From the IMG/VR virus record IMGVR_UViG_2778261139_000010: a DNA stretch of 16,410 nt; one strand, written 5' to 3'. The position numbers and the translations under genes were made by a program. This DNA is from a virus (lineage: Duplodnaviria; Heunggongvirae; Uroviricota; Caudoviricetes). Numbering within the stretch: position 1 is the stretch's first letter; every line of letters begins with the position of its first letter. The notes beneath the pieces are model-generated. The model was not told the DNA's origin and did no database searches. It worked only from the letters and a program-made list of their open reading frames with translations. Shown one piece after another: positions 1 to 6,223 of the stretch.

Positions 1-1230
1 ATGAGCAGAGCACTTAACAAACTGAGCGATACACAGCTGAGGAAAATCAACGGCACACCCGCCCAAAAAACAGCCTTTCTTAATGACGGTGGAAACCTGA
101 GCGTCAGGCATTCAACCAGTGGCCTTTTAACCTGGTATTTCACTTACAGGGCCGGAACGGGAAGGGGGGCACCACCGGAACGCATTAAGCTGGGAAATTA
201 TCCTGATCTGAGCCTGAAATCAGCCAGGGAAAAAGCGGCCCAGTGTCGCGCATGGCTGGCAGAGGGGAAAAATCCACGTCATGAAATGAATTACACCGTA
301 CAGGAAGCGTTAAAGCCGGTAACGGTTGGCGATGCGCTCACCTACTGGCTTGAGTCGTACGCAAAGGAAAACCGTGTGGATTATGACCCACTGAAAAAGC
401 GGCTAAATAATCACGTAATACAGCACATTGGCCCTATGCCGCTGGATAAATGCGAGCTACGGCACTGGCTGGCCTGTTTTGATCGGGTGGCAAAGAAAGC
501 CCCTGTTTCCGCCGGGTTCCTGCTACAGACATGCAAGCAGGCGCTTAAGTTCTGCAGGAAGCGGCGCTATGCAATCAGCAACGTTCTTGATGATATGAGT
601 GTGGCGGACGTTGGGAAAAAACCGGATATAAGTGAGCGTGTCTTAAGTAACAAAGAACTTGGCGAATTATTGCAGGCACTGGACAAAAAAATATTTTCCC
701 CTTACTACGTCGCACTAATCCGCCTCCTGATTGTTTTCGGATGCCGGACAGTAGAACTGAGGTTATCGGAGATCGGCGAGTGGGATTTTACCGAAATGCT
801 CTGGACCGTTCCGAAGGAGCACAGCAAAACGAAGGTAGCCATATTCCGGCCCATACCGGAAGCGATACTGCCGTTCGTCACGCAGCTGGTGGAGCAGAAC
901 AGGCACACGGGCTTATTGCTGGGGGAAGTGAAACAGGAAACCAGCGTATCGCAGTACGGCAGATTGGTGCACAGGAGGCTTAAACACCCTCACTGGTCAC
1001 TGCATGACATCCGGCGCACCTTTACAACCATGCTGAACGATTTAGGCGTTGATCCTCACGTCGTGGAGCAGCTTACAGGCCACCAGATGCCAGGAATGCA
1101 ACGCGTGTACAACCATTCCCGCTATATTGATGCGAAACGCAATGCGCTTGATATGTGGGTGGAGCGGTTGGAGATACTGGCGGGAACACATGAAAACGTA
1201 ACCACGCTACCAGTAACCAGAATAAAATAA
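1..1230 (+). CDS. int: Tyrosine site-specific integrase, P4-like family
   Basis: 409 aa. N-terminus has the P4-type arm-binding pattern (LNDGGNLSV..., IKLGNYPDLSLKSAREKA). C-terminal region has HDIRRTF and a terminal Y (RVYNHSRY) consistent with the catalytic R-H-R-Y signature. Confidence 0.9.
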   Translation: MSRALNKLSDTQLRKINGTPAQKTAFLNDGGNLSVRHSTSGLLTWYFTYRAGTGRGAPPERIKLGNYPDLSLKSAREKAAQCRAWLAEGKNPRHEMNYTVQEALKPVTVGDALTYWLESYAKENRVDYDPLKKRLNNHVIQHIGPMPLDKCELRHWLACFDRVAKKAPVSAGFLLQTCKQALKFCRKRRYAISNVLDDMSVADVGKKPDISERVLSNKELGELLQALDKKIFSPYYVALIRLLIVFGCRTVELRLSEIGEWDFTEMLWTVPKEHSKTKVAIFRPIPEAILPFVTQLVEQNRHTGLLLGEVKQETSVSQYGRLVHRRLKHPHWSLHDIRRTFTTMLNDLGVDPHVVEQLTGHQMPGMQRVYNHSRYIDAKRNALDMWVERLEILAGTHENVTTLPVTRIK

Positions 1231-1604: not shown

Positions 1605-1793
1605 GTGTTAAGCACTGATCGGTTTATACGTGAAAAAGAATGCGAAAAGCTAACAGGCCTTAGCCGCTCATGCCGCTACCGCCTGGAAAAGGCCGGACAA
1701 TTCCCATCACGTCGTAAACTTGGCGGGCGTTCTGTTGGCTGGTCTTTATCTGAGGTTTTGGCCTGGAAGGATAGCTGCAAGGCAGTTCACTAA
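1605..1793 (+). CDS. alpA: AlpA-family phage transcriptional regulator (excisionase-like HTH)
   Basis: 62 aa, GTG start with SD AAAGGGGG 5-13 nt upstream. Sequence pattern typical of AlpA/Vis small HTH proteins; position directly after int. Confidence 0.8.
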   Translation: MLSTDRFIREKECEKLTGLSRSCRYRLEKAGQFPSRRKLGGRSVGWSLSEVLAWKDSCKAVH

Positions 1794-1973
1794 AAAGACT
1801 GGCGGCACACAGCCACCACCAATCCATTATTGACCGATACCGGGATCTCGGTATCGGGAATAAACGCCATAATACTGAGGTATAACCATGATGAAATATA
1901 CGCCCGTACAGGGGCGGGGATTCGTTCGCCCTGGTGAATCTGAAAAGCCATGCTATAGGGTATTTTCAGGCAT

Positions 1974-2007
1974 AAAAAAAGCGGTCCCGATATGGAACCG
2001 CCTTTCT
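1974..2007 (-). terminator. Intrinsic terminator for the minus-strand small-gene transcript
   Basis: Minus strand reads GCGGTTCC-atatc-GGGACCGC (one mismatch in stem) followed by TTTTTTT; lies about 65 nt downstream of the minus-strand ORF ending at 2070. Confidence 0.5.
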
Positions 2008-2069
2008 GAACAATTAACCCGCTGCGCCGTATGTGTCAACAATCATAAGCCCGAACATGATAACCGTGA

Positions 2070-2273
2070 TCAGGCTGGTGGGCAATTACCTTGCTTGTTG
2101 GGGCCGTATTGTGCTGCCATTTTCATCCGTTCAGAACGTGAATATTTTTTTAGAAACTCATCAAGGACAAAAGCGCATGGAGCGAATCTTTCTGATTCAT
2201 GCTCGAGCGCCATATTTTCGTGCTCTCTGTTCGTTTTTTGCGATGGTGTATTGGTTGATTCTTTATTGGTCAT
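2070..2273 (-). CDS. Hypothetical small protein downstream of RHH-1
   Basis: 67 aa; ATG ACC AA start exactly 57 nt after the RHH-1 stop, same arrangement as 2787..3014 after RHH-2. Weak SD. No recognisable family. Confidence 0.4.
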   Translation of the reverse strand: MTNKESTNTPSQKTNREHENMALEHESERFAPCAFVLDEFLKKYSRSERMKMAAQYGPNKQGNCPPA

Positions 2274-2281
2274 TGTGTGTA

Positions 2282-2364
2282 CCTGTAAAGCAATGCGCCG
2301 TAGTACCTCACGCCACGGCGCTGATAGTAATTATTCTGATTCTTTGGCCTTGCGGCGCTGGCGG
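2282..2364. repeat. Copy 1 of an 83-nt near-identical repeat spanning the RHH-1 3' end and the downstream intergenic hairpin
   Basis: 3 mismatches in 83 nt versus 3023..3105, while the rest of the two RHH genes has diverged. Confidence 0.85.
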
Positions 2365-2510
2365 CGTTTGATCTCGCCTTTTGCTGCCGTAACTAGAAAT
2401 CCGGCGGTACTTTCGCCAGGTTCTTTAAGTTGCTCAATATCGGTCATTACCTCATGCGGGATTCTGACCGTTGTCATTTGTGATTTTGCGTTCTTTGCAC
2501 CTGTTGCCAT
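2331..2510 (-). CDS. Ribbon-helix-helix-like DNA-binding protein (RHH-1), candidate repressor
   Basis: 59 aa MATGAKNAKSQMTTVRIPHEVMTDIEQLKEPGESTAGFLVTAAKGEIKRRQRRKAKESE. Strong SD AGGAG 8 nt upstream. Beta-strand (TVRIP), helix, G-E-S turn, helix pattern. Paralog of 3072..3251. Confidence 0.65.
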   Translation of the reverse strand: MATGAKNAKSQMTTVRIPHEVMTDIEQLKEPGESTAGFLVTAAKGEIKRRQRRKAKESE

Positions 2511-2530
2511 TTCTGGTTCTCCTGATAATC

Positions 2531-2623
2531 GGTGTATTTCAGTATACGCAAAAAAAAAGATAAAAAAAGTCTTGCGGTGTATTTCACCTGAATGTAGATT
2601 TAAAAATAAAGGTGAAATACACC
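2531..2623. promoter_or_regulatory. Module-1 operator cluster: GGTGTATTTCA (2531), GGTGTATTTCACC (2576) and its exact inverse GGTGAAATACACC (2611), bracketing a sigma70-like rightward promoter (TTGCGG 2572..2577, 17-bp spacer, TAGATT 2595..2600)
   Basis: Exact repeats and inverted repeats read from the sequence. Promoter assignment is by eye from hexamer match and spacing. Confidence 0.55.
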
Positions 2624-2786
2624 CAAAACAACAACGCCCCGCAGTGATGGGAACACATACGGGGCGTCTAACCAAACCATTAATTGAGGTAACGATTATG
2701 GCTATAAAAGAGCATAGCTTACTCTTTATACACACACAAACGCCCCGGAAACGGAATAATCCGTTTCATAGTTCGGTTTTGTGTAC

Positions 2787-3014
2787 TCATCCTGGCGGGC
2801 GATTCTTACGGGACTTTAGCCGCCGTGGGCAGCTTGCTAAAAATGCCTCCAACGCGAATAGTCCAGGTTTCATTTCTATCGGTATTAGTTGGATATTCAG
2901 AGGATTAGCCAGTTCGGCTTCAAGGCGAGCACAGGTTTCTAACTGCCTTTGCCGAATGATTTCATCTTCTTGCGTCTGCGTGTCTTGTATTGGTGATAGT
3001 GTGTTGTTGGTCAT
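2787..3014 (-). CDS. Hypothetical small protein downstream of RHH-2
   Basis: 75 aa; ATG ACC AA start 57 nt after the RHH-2 stop. Central region looks coiled-coil-like (EDEIIRQRQLETCARLEAELA). No recognisable family. Confidence 0.4.
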   Translation of the reverse strand: MTNNTLSPIQDTQTQEDEIIRQRQLETCARLEAELANPLNIQLIPIEMKPGLFALEAFLASCPRRLKSRKNRPPG

Positions 3015-3022
3015 GATACTGC

Positions 3023-3105
3023 CCTGTAAAGCAATGCGCCGTAGTACCTCACACCACGGCGCTGATAGTGATTATTCTGATTCTTTGGCCTTGCGACGCT
3101 GGCGG
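3023..3105. repeat. Copy 2 of the 83-nt near-identical repeat (RHH-2 3' end plus intergenic hairpin)
   Basis: See 2282..2364. Confidence 0.85.
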
Positions 3106-3251
3106 TATTCAACTTCCCGCTTTAATGCAGCTGTAACAAACTGCCCTGTACTTTCGCCGGGCATTTTTACCGCCTCAACATTGTTCATAACTTCATGTGG
3201 AACCCTTGCCGCAACTGTTTGTGATTTTGCGTTTACTGCTTTTGTCGCCAT
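3072..3251 (-). CDS. Ribbon-helix-helix-like DNA-binding protein (RHH-2), candidate repressor of the rightward early operon
   Basis: 59 aa MATKAVNAKSQTVAARVPHEVMNNVEAVKMPGESTGQFVTAALKREVEYRQRRKAKESE. Strong SD GAGGGGGG upstream. Below the 60-aa cutoff of the ORF track, found by reverse-complementing the repeat. Confidence 0.65.
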   Translation of the reverse strand: MATKAVNAKSQTVAARVPHEVMNNVEAVKMPGESTGQFVTAALKREVEYRQRRKAKESE

Positions 3252-3301
3252 GTTGAGCCCCCCTCATAAAAAACAAATGCAGTATGCAGGAAAAAAAATA
3301 A

Positions 3302-3354
3302 GTGTTCAACACTTGACGTGTTTAACACCTCGATTTAAATTGGTGTTCAACACC
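3302..3354. promoter_or_regulatory. Module-2 operator cluster: palindromes GTGTTCAACAC (3302), GTGTTTAACAC (3318), GGTGTTCAACACC (3342), overlapping a sigma70-like rightward promoter (TTGACG 3313..3318, 17-bp spacer, TAAATT 3336..3341)
   Basis: Three copies of a self-complementary 11-13 bp site positioned at -35, in the spacer and just after -10. Classical repressor/operator geometry. Confidence 0.6.
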
Positions 3355-3443
3355 TTATTTAGGCAAGGTGTAGAAACGACGAAACCCCGCACTGTAGGAG
3401 CAGTAACGGGGCTTCTAACCAACAACGTAAACGAGGAGCCGTT

Positions 3444-3641
3444 ATGGTTGCCGTAAATCATATACCACACCTTGTACACACACAAACTGCCTTTGTGTGG
3501 CGTTTTCTGGCCCTGAGTGCCGGAGAATCTCAAATCATCCACGTAACCGCCTGGACGGAACGCGAAGCGCGTAGCCGTTGCCCGTCCGGTTGTGTTGCTG
3601 TATTTGCCGCCCGTATTCGTCAGGAGGTGCGCCATGATTAA
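3444..3641 (+). CDS. Small protein resembling Icd-like (host cell-division inhibitor-like) proteins of P1/P4-type elements; first gene of the early operon
   Basis: 65 aa, SD GAGGA 6 nt upstream. FVWRFLAL...TEREAR...VFAAR pattern recalled from Icd-like annotations; family call is from memory. Confidence 0.45.
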   Translation: MVAVNHIPHLVHTQTAFVWRFLALSAGESQIIHVTAWTEREARSRCPSGCVAVFAARIRQEVRHD

Positions 3642-3846
3642 TCTGTCACTTACTGACCTTAACCGCATTCAGTTTCGTGAGAAATTCACAGGGCAGCTAC
3701 TGGTCAATGTGGATAAAGGTCGCGTGGTGTGTAATTACCACTTACCAGATGAAGCAATTGTCGCCACAAGGGAATCATTACAGGAAATCACAAAACGTGC
3801 CGGAATGATTAACACGAATATTCAGGGGATGCTTTATGCACAATAA
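3634..3846 (+). CDS. Hypothetical protein (early operon)
   Basis: 70 aa from ATG 3634, overlapping the stop of the upstream gene (translational coupling). No recognisable family. Confidence 0.5.
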   Translation: MINLSLTDLNRIQFREKFTGQLLVNVDKGRVVCNYHLPDEAIVATRESLQEITKRAGMINTNIQGMLYAQ

Positions 3847-4075
3847 AACCACACCGGACGCAGCCGCCGAAGCCATCAAAACGCTGATGCACGCGCTGAT
3901 TGATATTTCTGTTATCGCGGACAGGGCACATAAGCACGCCACCAGTGAAACAGAATATGCCGGGGCTTTCGTTCCTCATTCGCTGGCGGTTATGCAACTT
4001 AGTGCTGATATGGCGCTGAATGAGGCCAAAGCTATCCTGATTGCTGATTGTGAAAATGGGGGGGGTTATGCGTGA
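3836..4075 (+). CDS. Hypothetical protein (early operon)
   Basis: 79 aa; ATG overlaps the upstream stop; AGGGG SD. Confidence 0.55.
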   Translation: MHNKTTPDAAAEAIKTLMHALIDISVIADRAHKHATSETEYAGAFVPHSLAVMQLSADMALNEAKAILIADCENGGGYA

Positions 4076-4289
4076 TGATCGTTTTTATTCCCTGAAACAA
4101 GAATTTTCCGGCGTATCTGATGATGCGGCTGATGCGCTTTCGTCAATGCCAGAACTTATTAGAGCGGCTTTTTTCTTACTTTCCACGAAAGAATATAAAT
4201 CAACTGGAATAGACGTACTGAATATTGCTGCCGATTATGCTGATTTCGTGACAGAAGTTATTTTAAGAAAAACGACGGACGGGGATTAA
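4068..4289 (+). CDS. Hypothetical protein (early operon)
   Basis: About 73 aa from ATG 4068 (GGGGGG SD; ATGcgTGA overlap with upstream stop). The ORF track's start at 4041 is TTG; ATG 4056 is an alternative. Confidence 0.5.
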   Translation: MRDDRFYSLKQEFSGVSDDAADALSSMPELIRAAFFLLSTKEYKSTGIDVLNIAADYADFVTEVILRKTTDGD

Positions 4290-4290
4290 T

Positions 4291-4524
4291 ATGCGAGATA
4301 TTTACCACAAAACAACAGATCGCGTATTTCTTGCACTTTCTCACAGTGAAAACATGCTGGAAATATTGCGCATATGGCTTGAAACACTTGGCGACAATGA
4401 ACGCGACAAACAAAAATCAAGAATTGCCACGGCATTAATAACGCTTCTTGAGCCTGTAATAAATGAGTTGCAGGAAATAGAGACATTACACGACCAGTAT
4501 AAAGCGCCCCACACCGGAGAATAA
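4291..4524 (+). CDS. Hypothetical protein (early operon)
   Basis: 77 aa; starts 1 nt after the upstream stop. Confidence 0.55.
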   Translation: MRDIYHKTTDRVFLALSHSENMLEILRIWLETLGDNERDKQKSRIATALITLLEPVINELQEIETLHDQYKAPHTGE

Positions 4525-4529
4525 AAATA

Positions 4530-4829
4530 ATGAAACTTAAATATTCTGGCTTAACTGCCAGTGGCAACACTCACCCTAAATTTACGCGCGGTGATATTTA
4601 CCGCGACCAGTACGGCGGCACGGTAATGATTAAGGGCGTGGCGGGACGGTGCGTAACTTACCGCCGTGAAGGTTACGAATATGATTGCGTGATGCCTGTT
4701 TATCAGTTCCGGCGTGATTTTTCTCTGGTACAGACCGCGCCGCATAACGTGCCCACCAGCAGGGAGAAAGCACGCGCCAATATTCAGAAGATGAAAAACA
4801 TGATTAACGGATTCAGGGGCAAGAAATGA
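4530..4829 (+). CDS. Hypothetical protein (early operon, immediately upstream of rep)
   Basis: 99 aa; GGAGA SD; stop overlaps the rep start (ATGA). Confidence 0.55.
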   Translation: MKLKYSGLTASGNTHPKFTRGDIYRDQYGGTVMIKGVAGRCVTYRREGYEYDCVMPVYQFRRDFSLVQTAPHNVPTSREKARANIQKMKNMINGFRGKK

Positions 4830-6223
4830 AAAGCGCACCGAACTTAAAAAAACAGCCTTACGACAAGATGACCGAAGTCATCATTTTTGCGGGTAGTGAT
4901 GCGTGGGCACATGCGAAACAGTGGCAGGAACAGGACGGGCGACTGGCTGGCGATAATGTGCCTCCCATTGTGCTGGCTGATGATCAACTGGATGAACTGG
5001 CAGACCTGAGAATCATCGACGAGGGGCGCTATTGTGTCCGGCTGTACAAGGCAGGCCACATCAGGCCATCAAATATTAATGCCATTGCGCACAAGCTGGC
5101 GGCGGCGGGCGTAACTGATGCGAATTATTACCCCGAAGGGATACACAGCCAGAAGCGGGAGAACTGGCGCGAATATCTGGAACGGGAGCGGGGGAAAAAG
5201 CCAGGGGAAGAACACCACCAGCGAAAAACCACGCTACCGATGAGCGTTGGATCTGCCGGATACGACACGCAATTAGATTACGTGGTAAAGGGGATTATTC
5301 CGGCATCGTCGCTATGCAGCATATACGGGGCAAGCGGTTCCTATAAATCATTCCTTGCGGGTTCGTGGGCGTGTCACGTTTCCACGGGCCGCCAGTGGGG
5401 AGGCCGCAGGGTGGCGCATGGCGCTGTTCTCTATGTGGTTGGTGAAGGCGGTATCGGCGTTCCGCGTCGTGTAAAAGCCTGGGAAGTTGTGCACGGTGAG
5501 CAGGTAAAAAATCTGTATCTGGTAAACCGTCCGGTCTTTCCGGCGGTCCCGCTTGATGTTGATGAAATGGTTATCGCTGCCCGTCAGGTGGAGCGGGAAA
5601 CGGGTAAACCTGTACGCATGATTATTCTGGATACGCTGGCGCGTTGCTTTGGTGGGAATGATGAAAATGATTCCCGTGATATGGGGGCGTTTATCCGTGG
5701 TTGTGACGAACTGAAACGACGCACAGGGGCCACGGTGCTGGTGGTTCACCATTCCGGCAAGGATGAGACGAAAGGCGCGCGCGGTTCCAGTGCATTTCGT
5801 GCATCACTGGATGCTGAATACCGGATACGCAGGGAGGACGCAGGAAGCGAAGCGCTGGTTATCTCATGCACCAAAATGAAGGACGCGGAGGAACTCAAAG
5901 AAGCCGCATATGACTTACGCGTGGTGGAGCTGTTTACCGACGCTGACGGGGAGTTAATCACGTCGCTGGTGGTGGTGGATAAGCCGCGCCCTCCCGTTGA
6001 ACTGGAGCGCATCGAGGAGGCAGGCAACAAGACGGAAAACCATACCGCACTATGGGGGTGCATCCGTTCACGCACACAGAACGGCGACAAGTGCACGATC
6101 CCGCTGTTACGTGATGACATGAAACGGCTTGGGTATGACGTGAAAAATATGCGGCGATGGTTAGCCAAACTGGAAAAAGACGCCGTGATTTACATTGATG
6201 GTGATGATGTAGGACCACTGTAA
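4826..6223 (+). CDS. RepA-like AAA ATPase / replicative helicase-type replication initiator (satellite rep)
   Basis: 465 aa. Walker A-like GASGSYKS and Walker B-like MIILDTLA. Followed immediately by an iteron array. No obvious primase motifs seen by eye. Confidence 0.7.
   Translation: MKSAPNLKKQPYDKMTEVIIFAGSDAWAHAKQWQEQDGRLAGDNVPPIVLADDQLDELADLRIIDEGRYCVRLYKAGHIRPSNINAIAHKLAAAGVTDANYYPEGIHSQKRENWREYLERERGKKPGEEHHQRKTTLPMSVGSAGYDTQLDYVVKGIIPASSLCSIYGASGSYKSFLAGSWACHVSTGRQWGGRRVAHGAVLYVVGEGGIGVPRRVKAWEVVHGEQVKNLYLVNRPVFPAVPLDVDEMVIAARQVERETGKPVRMIILDTLARCFGGNDENDSRDMGAFIRGCDELKRRTGATVLVVHHSGKDETKGARGSSAFRASLDAEYRIRREDAGSEALVISCTKMKDAEELKEAAYDLRVVELFTDADGELITSLVVVDKPRPPVELERIEEAGNKTENHTALWGCIRSRTQNGDKCTIPLLRDDMKRLGYDVKNMRRWLAKLEKDAVIYIDGDDVGPL

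Follow-up and report, generated by a model that had tools for sequence, protein, structure and literature searches.

What keeps the replication genes of a phage satellite silent until a helper phage arrives, and how is that silence broken? The question is raised by the window studied here, the whole 16,410-nucleotide stretch of IMG/VR virus record IMGVR_UViG_2778261139_000010 (Caudoviricetes), which is, by its gene content, a capsid-forming phage-inducible chromosomal island (cf-PICI), a phage satellite in Escherichia coli. Three 11-bp palindromes (O1 to O3) lie at the promoter of its early operon, and a small protein of the YlcI/YnfO family with a predicted ribbon-helix-helix (RHH) fold, RHH-2, is encoded divergently from the same region. 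We consider it likely that RHH-2 is the resident repressor of this operon, acting on O1-O3, and that it is overridden by AlpA-dependent read-through from upstream. The repression step of this mechanism is drawn from covariation, fold and geometry; the induction step is inferred and less certain.

The regulatory region of Gram-negative PICIs differs from that of the Staphylococcus aureus pathogenicity islands (SaPIs), a difference that has been called "a mystery" (PMC6092414). AlpA activates its own promoter and downstream genes, its expression is necessary and sufficient for the induction of the island EcCICFT073, and its over-expression alone, with no phage, makes this island excise and replicate; helper phages switch on alpA, and uncontrolled replication of a related island is toxic (PMC6092414). 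The literature that we searched (YlcI/YnfO; PICIs with ribbon-helix-helix; EcCICFT073 transcriptomes) held no prior description of the module reported here, and YlcI/YnfO was named there merely as a "prophage-associated protein".

Operators and early promoter

The control region and the genes on its two sides are laid out as follows.

3072-3251, minus strand: RHH-2, the proposed repressor; 59 residues, YlcI/YnfO family, predicted ribbon-helix-helix, residues 11-15 QTVAA
3281-3309, minus strand: P_L, candidate leftward promoter of RHH-2; -35 TTGAAC (3309-3304, inside O1), 17-bp spacer, -10 CATACT (3286-3281)
3302-3312, no strand: O1, GTGTTCAACAC; extended palindrome AAGTGTTCAACACTT at 3300-3314; adjoins the -35 of P_R upstream and overlaps the candidate P_L -35
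3313-3318, plus strand: -35 TTGACG of P_R, the early rightward promoter
3318-3328, no strand: O2, GTGTTTAACAC; begins on the last -35 base and occupies the P_R spacer
3336-3341, plus strand: -10 TAAATT of P_R, 17 bp from the -35
3343-3353, no strand: O3, GTGTTCAACAC; GGTGTTCAACACC at 3342-3354; begins 2 bp past the -10 and spans the predicted start at about 3348
3444-3641, plus strand: Icd-like gene (icd), first of the early operon
3444-6223, plus strand: early operon; icd, five small open reading frames (ORFs), then the RepA/AAA_25 helicase gene (4826-6223)

The sequence GTGTTNAACAC has exactly three matches in the window, at 3302-3312, 3318-3328 and 3343-3353, and a repeat finder returned identical copies with start-to-start spacings of 16 and 25 bp. 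When up to one mismatch was allowed, four matches were found in the 16.4-kb window against 0.58 expected, a number reached in one of 200 shuffles. A near-copy at the alpA start codon (GTGTTAAGCAC, 1605-1615, one mismatch) was considered as a fourth operator and rejected, as it encodes MLST and is identical in EcCICFT073, whose operators are GTGGGCCACAC; it is probably a coding coincidence. The exact matches, the repeat finder and the shuffles therefore bear out the three palindromes that a sequence-only reading had noticed at the early promoter, and the divergent orientation of RHH-2 that it described is equally clear. Its placement of the sites needs one correction: O2 does lie in the spacer and O3 just past the -10, but O1 adjoins the -35 rather than sitting on it. 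The same reading took P_R for the only plausible rightward promoter. This agrees with a sigma-70 consensus scan of both strands of 2700-3700, in which TTGACG-17 bp-TAAATT is the sole sigma-70-like site, but the open frame from alpA to icd described below suggests a second, read-through route.

In a gapless alignment of 26 distinct close relatives, the operator arms and the hexamers of both promoters are essentially invariant, and O1 does not vary at all. The variable positions are 3329-3335 and the central base of O2 and O3; that of O3 is C, T or A, with its arms fixed. Invariant arms around a free central base are the pattern expected of a dyad-symmetric site.

Downstream of the operators, the early transcript is predicted to begin with a structured leader.

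3346-3443, plus strand: 5' leader of the early transcript, from fold prediction and covariation; 5' hairpin at 3346-3375, bipartite hairpin at 3381-3415, conserved UCUAACCA at 3414-3421
3424-3443, plus strand: third leader hairpin, small, with the icd Shine-Dalgarno in its loop

Over 27 diverse loci, compensatory changes were found in 11 of the 15 pairs tested in hairpins 2 and 3, and 91.8% of cells were paired, as compared with 27-40% in slid controls. That this covarying leader starts just past O3 supports a transcription start within the operator region. No Rfam match to the leader was obtained, either with the whole window at the gathering threshold or with 2450-3750 at E-values up to 10. 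The leader, although structured, was thus rejected as a family member of the P1 c4 or P4 CI-type immunity RNAs (no RF01695 or RF01394 match).

Covariation of repressor and operator

If RHH-2 reads these palindromes, its DNA-contacting residues and the operators should change together. We compared about 110 loci: 33 from genomes of different species, 80 from viral contigs, EcCICFT073 and three more E. coli islands. Related loci span many Enterobacterales, and the offsets of the sites from the RHH ATG are fixed at +21 or +50, +67 and +92. In the layout common to nearly all loci, one copy lies about 21 nt from the RHH ATG and overlaps a conserved block, CAGTATAC, which is TATACT when read from the RHH strand; in most loci there follows TTGAC, and a second copy begins at the final base of this -35 hexamer; a -10-like hexamer stands directly before the third copy. 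The offset of O1 in the window (+50) is kept in other loci of the QT[VI]AA class. Across operator classes, most loci have TTGAC at the offset of the P_R -35, a few reading TTGAA, TTGAG or TTGCG, and the CAGTAT(A/G)C block at the offset of P_L is kept in nearly all classes, with an operator copy overlapping it in most relatives.

In the family alignment, residues 11-15 are hypervariable, with a near-invariant NAKS before them and R-V-P-H after them. Nineteen variants of this beta-strand go with 14 operator cores at the fixed positions, and it is in their inner bases that the sites vary together with residues 12 and 14; the following were among them.

Strand QT[VIL]AA, core GTGTTYAACAC: E. coli, Edwardsiella, Pectobacterium, Kosakonia and others, at 58-72% protein identity
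Strand [KR]KLEA, core GTGGCTGACAC: Xenorhabdus and E. coli
Strand QSVTA, core GTGTAAGACAC
Strands KRFDV, KKIDV and KRIDA, core GTGTC-N-GACAC
Strand QK[LV]Q[AT], core GTGGAGTCCAC
Strand QALKA, core GTGGGCCACAC: EcCICFT073
Strand QMTTV, core GTGTATTTCAC: RHH-1 of the window

An identical strand comes with an identical operator across genera, even at 58-72% protein identity, whereas differing strands at similar identity come with differing operators. Over 43 unique protein/operator pairs, residue 14 explains 0.92 of the operator-class entropy and residue 12 explains 0.75, and R16 is invariant. The repeats thus overlap the core promoter and covary with the recognition residues, as expected of an operator-repressor pair. 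The pairing argument draws on three observations: the copies all change together, only the reading residues are affected by the changes, and the same pairing recurs in diverged lineages. On this comparative evidence, it is very likely that RHH-2 binds the three operators, and the RHH-2/palindrome pairing, and hence repression of the early promoter and autoregulation, appears strongly supported. With palindromes over the promoter and covariation with the strand of the divergent RHH protein, repression of the icd-rep operon is the best reading of the locus.

Predicted fold of RHH-2

Both RHH proteins of the window pass the cut-off of 30 of NCBIfam NF041551 (YlcI/YnfO), RHH-2 with 59.7 bits and RHH-1 with 62.1 bits, and both match PHROG 949. 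An AlphaFold monomer of RHH-2 (33 homologues; predicted local distance difference test score, pLDDT, of 87) has an extended N-terminus and two helices, and the G-E-S turn preceding helix 2 is invariant in the family alignment. The N-terminal strand, the two helices and the G-x-S/T/N turn of the ribbon-helix-helix fold are therefore all seen in the predicted monomer, and this fold is supported for RHH-2 by the model. The protein is a single RHH domain with a basic tail, without anything like a sensor domain, and no helix-turn-helix (HTH) family was detected in it. By hhalign, its residues 12, 14 and 16 align, weakly, with Q9, N11 and R13 of the P22 repressor Arc. These three Arc residues are the base-contacting ones in the Arc-operator structure. 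Dimeric binding of the major groove through an antiparallel beta-ribbon has indirect support, in that strand residues 12 and 14 predict the operator class and the sites are palindromes whose central base is free to vary.

An open frame from alpA to icd

The published dependence of EcCICFT073 on AlpA raises the question of how a repressor at P_R would be overcome. The stretch between alpA and icd contains the following features.

1605-1793, plus strand: alpA, AlpA-family regulator (Pfam PF05930, 65.2 bits), the published activator of Gram-negative PICI induction (PMC6092414)
1833-1862, plus strand: 10-bp perfect hairpin, CCGAUACCGG / UCGGUAUCGG, between alpA and the long open frame, without a U-run 3' of it
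1888-3456, plus strand: stop-free frame of 522 codons; starts 95 nt past the alpA stop with a GAGG Shine-Dalgarno and ends 10 nt inside icd
1981-2001, minus strand: intrinsic terminator of the leftward genes, hairpin then U7; -19.8 kcal/mol, z-score -4.4
2070-2273, minus strand: orf67, downstream of RHH-1; matches phrog_21027 (function unassigned there)
2331-2510, minus strand: RHH-1, YlcI/YnfO protein, 61% identical to RHH-2, beta-strand QMTTV
2787-3014, minus strand: orf75, small leftward gene downstream of RHH-2, the counterpart of orf67

The frame at 1888-3456 passes antisense through orf67, RHH-1, orf75 and RHH-2, in the same register to each, and through both operator/promoter regions. 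It holds no internal stop, as compared with 28 and 49 in the remaining two frames, and the longest open run in 2000 dinucleotide-preserving shuffles was 245 codons, against 523 observed. In 33 non-redundant loci the frame is stop-free antisense to the RHH gene in every case, and in 26 it is also stop-free across the intergenic region of about 190 nt; other frames have 3-6 stops per segment. When the RHH genes were recoded synonymously, the frame remained open in an average of 40% of the trials at each locus, and the probability of finding all 33 open is about 1e-14, assuming independent loci. In most loci, the frame begins 40-100 nt past alpA and either is in frame with icd or ends within about 30 nt of its start. 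EcCICFT073 has a 428-codon open frame from alpA into icd, and O157 has one of 314 codons across an unrelated RHH gene. One island, in which the second cassette was swapped, has retained the open frame through 217 substitutions; with 200 substitutions placed at random, the frame survived in 0.3% of trials.

The 522-codon ORF was also considered as a conserved protein and rejected: its apparent motifs KTKA..GRQ and AGGQ reflect the leftward terminator hairpin and the strand opposite the C-terminal codons of the small leftward protein, and elsewhere its translation is not conserved among the relatives compared (no protein-database search was made). It is unannotated in a near-identical genome. 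The hairpin at 1833-1862 could be a processing or regulatory site of a read-through transcript.

The primers of the AlpA-dependent reporter pJP1290 map to positions 8128-9200 of locus L117, a region that extends to 486 nt past alpA, which is farther than the leftward terminator and within the corresponding ORF of EcCICFT073. This mapping shows that AlpA-dependent rightward transcription extends 486 nt past alpA, into the open frame. We infer that transcripts driven by AlpA run on as far as icd, and that the frame has stayed open to translation so that ribosomes protect these transcripts from Rho. The conservation of the open frame also suggests that AlpA-driven, translated read-through may bypass the repressor. 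An analogy for the read-through step is found in P4, where control of the replication operon works by premature termination (PMC4825925).

Proposed mechanism

In the resident island, RHH-2 dimers would place a beta-ribbon of two strands in the major groove at each 11-bp palindrome; residues 12 and 14 would read the inner bases, and the invariant R16 is a candidate reader of the shared GTG/CAC arms. RHH-2 bound to O2 in the spacer and to O3 over the -10/+1 region would exclude RNA polymerase from P_R, and icd, the small early genes and the RepA helicase would stay silent. As O1 overlaps the -35 of its own promoter, RHH-2 would also limit its own synthesis. A helper protein that binds RHH-2 is probably not what ends repression; as published, the helper switches on alpA, and AlpA-dependent rightward transcription would run on through 1888-3456, whose translation would shield the transcript from Rho. 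Read-through transcription, being antisense across the RHH genes, would hamper repressor synthesis while it delivers polymerase and ribosomes into icd and rep.

More tentatively, Gram-negative PICIs and cf-PICIs may possess a previously undescribed two-layer switch in general, made of a swappable RHH/operator clamp and a stop-free "conduit" frame from alpA to icd that is not conserved as a protein; we regard this broader proposal as possible rather than probable. If it were true, helper-triggered AlpA, ribosome-escorted polymerase and convergent shutdown of the repressor would lead to expression of the replication operon, which would then be locked on. This would explain why AlpA appears to be the sole inducer despite a repressor, and the frame would clearly exemplify selection that acts on translatability alone and extends over an antisense gene as well as a promoter region.

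Several points weigh against the repressor and its proposed release. The published model of these islands requires no repressor (PMC6092414). Pfam and PDB sequence and profile searches returned no RHH-family match above threshold for RHH-2, Foldseek with its model gave nothing significant, and the RHH assignment is based on the predicted monomer; the register with Arc comes from an alignment with a probability of 5.6% (P 0.007). P_L was read from the sequence and has 8 of 12 consensus matches, under the scan threshold. The RHH gene and its operators are less than 100 bp apart and co-inherited, so their covariation is not fully independent evidence. As for release, the read-through route is supported no further than 486 nt past alpA, and 1-nt indels split the frame in some strains (L001, L120), which means that it cannot be strictly essential.

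Alternative explanations

The sequence-only reading had likened RHH-2 to Stl, as a master switch removed from its operators by a helper-derived signal. In this form, a helper-phage protein would strip RHH-2 from O1-O3 as the primary signal for replication, and this seems unlikely to us. The RHH-2 gene does occupy a place like that of stl/rpr, beside int and transcribed away from the replication operon (PMC6092414); the many specificity alleles could reflect an arms race, and no helper factor that induces alpA has been named in print. Yet the variable residues are those predicted to face DNA, and they track the operators rather than a helper. Neither RHH-2 (tblastn) nor its 192-bp control region (blastn) has a relative among 50,697 phage records, and hence there is no evidence in these records of a helper that shares RHH-2 immunity. 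EcCICFT073, which AlpA over-expression induces in the absence of any phage, has the same cassette, in the order alpA, leftward small gene, YlcI/YnfO gene, operators, leader, icd, primase; its operators are two GTGGGCCACAC copies and one degenerate third, and its YlcI/YnfO strand is QALKA. The presence of the cassette in an AlpA-induced island, together with a size of 59 residues that leaves no room for a sensor, argues against RHH-2 as a helper sensor of the Stl type. As EcCICFT073 is also an island without an identified repressor, the same observation makes RHH-2 a strong candidate for the missing one. What survives of the earlier comparison is thus a repressor holding the icd-rep operon silent, which remains the best reading of the promoter-overlying palindromes and their covariation; the removal by a helper does not fit a protein that lacks a sensor domain, is not HTH and has a counterpart in an AlpA-induced island. 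RHH-2 is better described as one layer of a switch than as a master helper sensor.

It is rather improbable that RHH-2 is instead a dosage governor similar to CopG or omega, throttling rep after induction, with quiescence coming mainly from the absence of AlpA and from the structured leader. The best structural matches of RHH-2 include omega, ORF56 and the CopG family, which are RHH repressors of copy control and partition; an autoregulatory layout would fit such a role, and the icd Shine-Dalgarno in a leader hairpin loop suggests an extra layer of control. However, P_R, with its near-consensus -35 and 17-bp spacer, would drive a cell-division inhibitor and a helicase, and the published toxicity of uncontrolled replication in a related island means that some factor must hold P_R off at rest. 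RHH-2 is the only candidate with sites at P_R. A governor role also overlaps with resident repression by RHH-2 rather than excluding it.

We give little credence to the view that RHH-2 and orf75 form an addiction pair similar to toxin-antitoxin systems, in which the palindromes would autoregulate the leftward promoter and the rightward overlap would be incidental. In nearly all loci, two of the three sites lie on the rightward -35/spacer and -10/+1 regions and one on the leftward promoter. A hairpin lies between RHH-2 and orf75, the product of the partner gene has no toxin-family match, and the toxin-binding extension that RHH antitoxins typically have at the C-terminus is missing from RHH-2.

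That the palindromes are bound by AlpA, by the Rep helicase as origin iterons or by a host factor is hardly credible, and the first two were rejected as candidates: the alpA near-copy that could speak for it is coding sequence kept unchanged beside the different operators of EcCICFT073, the operator class tracks neither the AlpA allele (three classes go with alleles that are 95-100% identical) nor the downstream module, it follows RHH residues 12 and 14, and O157 has the leader and icd of the window behind a different RHH/palindrome pair.

Exchange of RHH cassettes

If RHH-2 is a resident repressor, is its specificity fixed? The window itself contains a second cassette, in which 2511-2750 is a paralogue of 3252-3460.

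2532-2622, no strand: RHH-1 control region; operators GTGTATTTCAG (2532-2542), GTGTATTTCAC (2577-2587) and GTGAAATACAC (2612-2622, inverted)
2572-2600: RHH-1 promoter-like site; TTGCGG at 2572-2577, 17 bp, TAGATT at 2595-2600

The palindromes of RHH-1 differ from those of RHH-2, and 3' of them come the leader hairpin again and an icd gene cut down to its start (ATG at 2699, about 15 codons). Judged by these differences, the RHH-1 cassette serves as an internal control for specificity within the window. The RHH-1 cassette (2331-2750) looks like a remnant of recombination between two islands, and its promoter would fire antisense into orf75 and RHH-2.

The RHH-1/RHH-2 double cassette was found in at least 20 complete E. 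coli genomes, in one of which a cassette of the KKLEA/GTGGCTGACAC type has taken the place of the second one. In the cf-PICI of E. coli O157:H7 (L035, 2257-2475), an unrelated 57-residue Arc-like protein and two GGTAATTACC palindromes occupy the RHH-2/operator slot. The sole family signal of this small protein is a weak Pfam Arc match (E 0.038). Downstream, the O157 islands have a leader and icd of the window type, and BLAST similarity begins at about window position 3385. The paralogue, the swapped second cassette and the O157 replacement together indicate that the RHH-plus-operator unit behaves as an exchangeable, immunity-like cassette. In mechanistic terms, the N-terminal coding end and the operators would form a compact, swappable specificity unit of about 200 bp with many alleles.

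Two further arrangements were seen. One family member, P0027, is chimeric, with an N-terminal half of the QSVTA class and a C-terminal half (GESTGQFVTAALKREVEYRQRRKAKE) identical to RHH-2, which suggests that intragenic recombination moves the reading strand and the adjacent operators together. In E. coli RM10809-3 (L118, 2351-2689), a 99.8%-identical double cassette is followed by a partial "ash family protein" gene and then by a different icd allele; the same cassette thus stands before different early operons.

Island identity and neighboring genes

An island in tqsA of E. coli 2014C-3307 (NZ_CP027368) is 99.6% identical to the window (over 3000-3700). Its annotation lists an integrase, an AlpA-type regulator, two small leftward genes and an Icd-like protein, followed by a RepA-family helicase, SSB, PerC, an HK97-type capsid, protease, portal, connectors, HNH, and small and large terminase, and it contains no tail genes. 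Judged on this annotation, the island has int (1-1230, plus strand, in the window), alpA, a replication module and its own HK97-type capsid and packaging set in about 15 kb free of tail genes. This agrees with the gene content typical of the cf-PICIs described in 10.1101/2022.09.08.507074.

A small leftward gene sits 3' of each RHH gene, with a hairpin in between. Genes of the orf67 type have a conserved EHESERFAPCAF motif, which is also present in EcCICFT073 and O157; a Pfam search with this type gave no match, and orf67 is annotated as hypothetical in some genomes.

From a biological perspective, the module described here offers a candidate repressor with mapped predicted operators, present in EcCICFT073 and, as an unrelated RHH protein, in EcCIEDL933, and sequence related to it is found in about one quarter of complete E. 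coli genomes. The module also suggests a possible wiring between AlpA and a repressor, and a function can be proposed for the uncharacterised YlcI/YnfO family. The natural matched repressor/operator pairs, with their two-residue recognition code, could serve as orthogonal parts.

Comparison with known systems

An RHH repressor with promoter-overlapping operators is a classical kind of system. What appears to be new here is its presence in Gram-negative satellites as swappable specificities, the function proposed for YlcI/YnfO, and the conserved open frame from alpA to icd.

In phage P22, Arc and Mnt operators lie over or between the -35 and -10 and face a divergent promoter, and the repressor controls the outward operon as well as its own side. 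Like RHH-2, Arc and Mnt of P22 immI are very small RHH proteins, and specificity lies at beta-strand positions of RHH-2 that are equivalent to Arc Q9, N11 and R13 in the hhalign register. However, RHH-2 has no detectable sequence relationship to Arc or Mnt, and it faces three separate 11-bp palindromes, whereas the P22 operator is a single 21-bp site bound by a tetramer. The element is also a satellite and not a phage, and the target operon encodes replication functions here but an antirepressor in P22.

The islands share with Stl/Rpr of the SaPIs a candidate or known repressor that is divergent from the excision/replication operon, next to int, with a presumed silencing role (PMC6092414). Stl is a large HTH protein with a helper-capturing domain, whereas RHH-2, judged from its model, has neither the HTH nor the helper-binding domain of the Stl/Rpr class. 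CopG of pMV158 and omega of pSM19035 are similar in that RHH dimers occupy repeats or palindromes that lie over the promoter of an operon for a replication initiator, but CopG is co-transcribed with rep while RHH-2 is divergent, omega reads 7-bp heptads, and neither belongs to the YlcI/YnfO family.

In P4 immunity (CI RNA, seqA/seqC) and P1 immI (c4-icd-ant), too, an Icd-like gene comes first, behind a leader that is structured and conserved, and control of a satellite replication operon acts on transcript elongation and translation (PMC4825925; PMC10111431). Here, the leader has no C4 or isrK Rfam match, even at an E-value of 10, and the window has a probable protein repressor with DNA operators, which P4 does not. 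Another comparison is with EcCICFT073, a model Gram-negative PICI, and EcCIEDL933, a model cf-PICI, for which the literature searched gave no description as repressor/operator modules. They share with the window the order of int, alpA, a leftward small gene with an RHH gene, operators, leader, icd and rep, and differ from it in their specificity alleles, with O157 using its unrelated Arc-like RHH protein and two GGTAATTACC palindromes.

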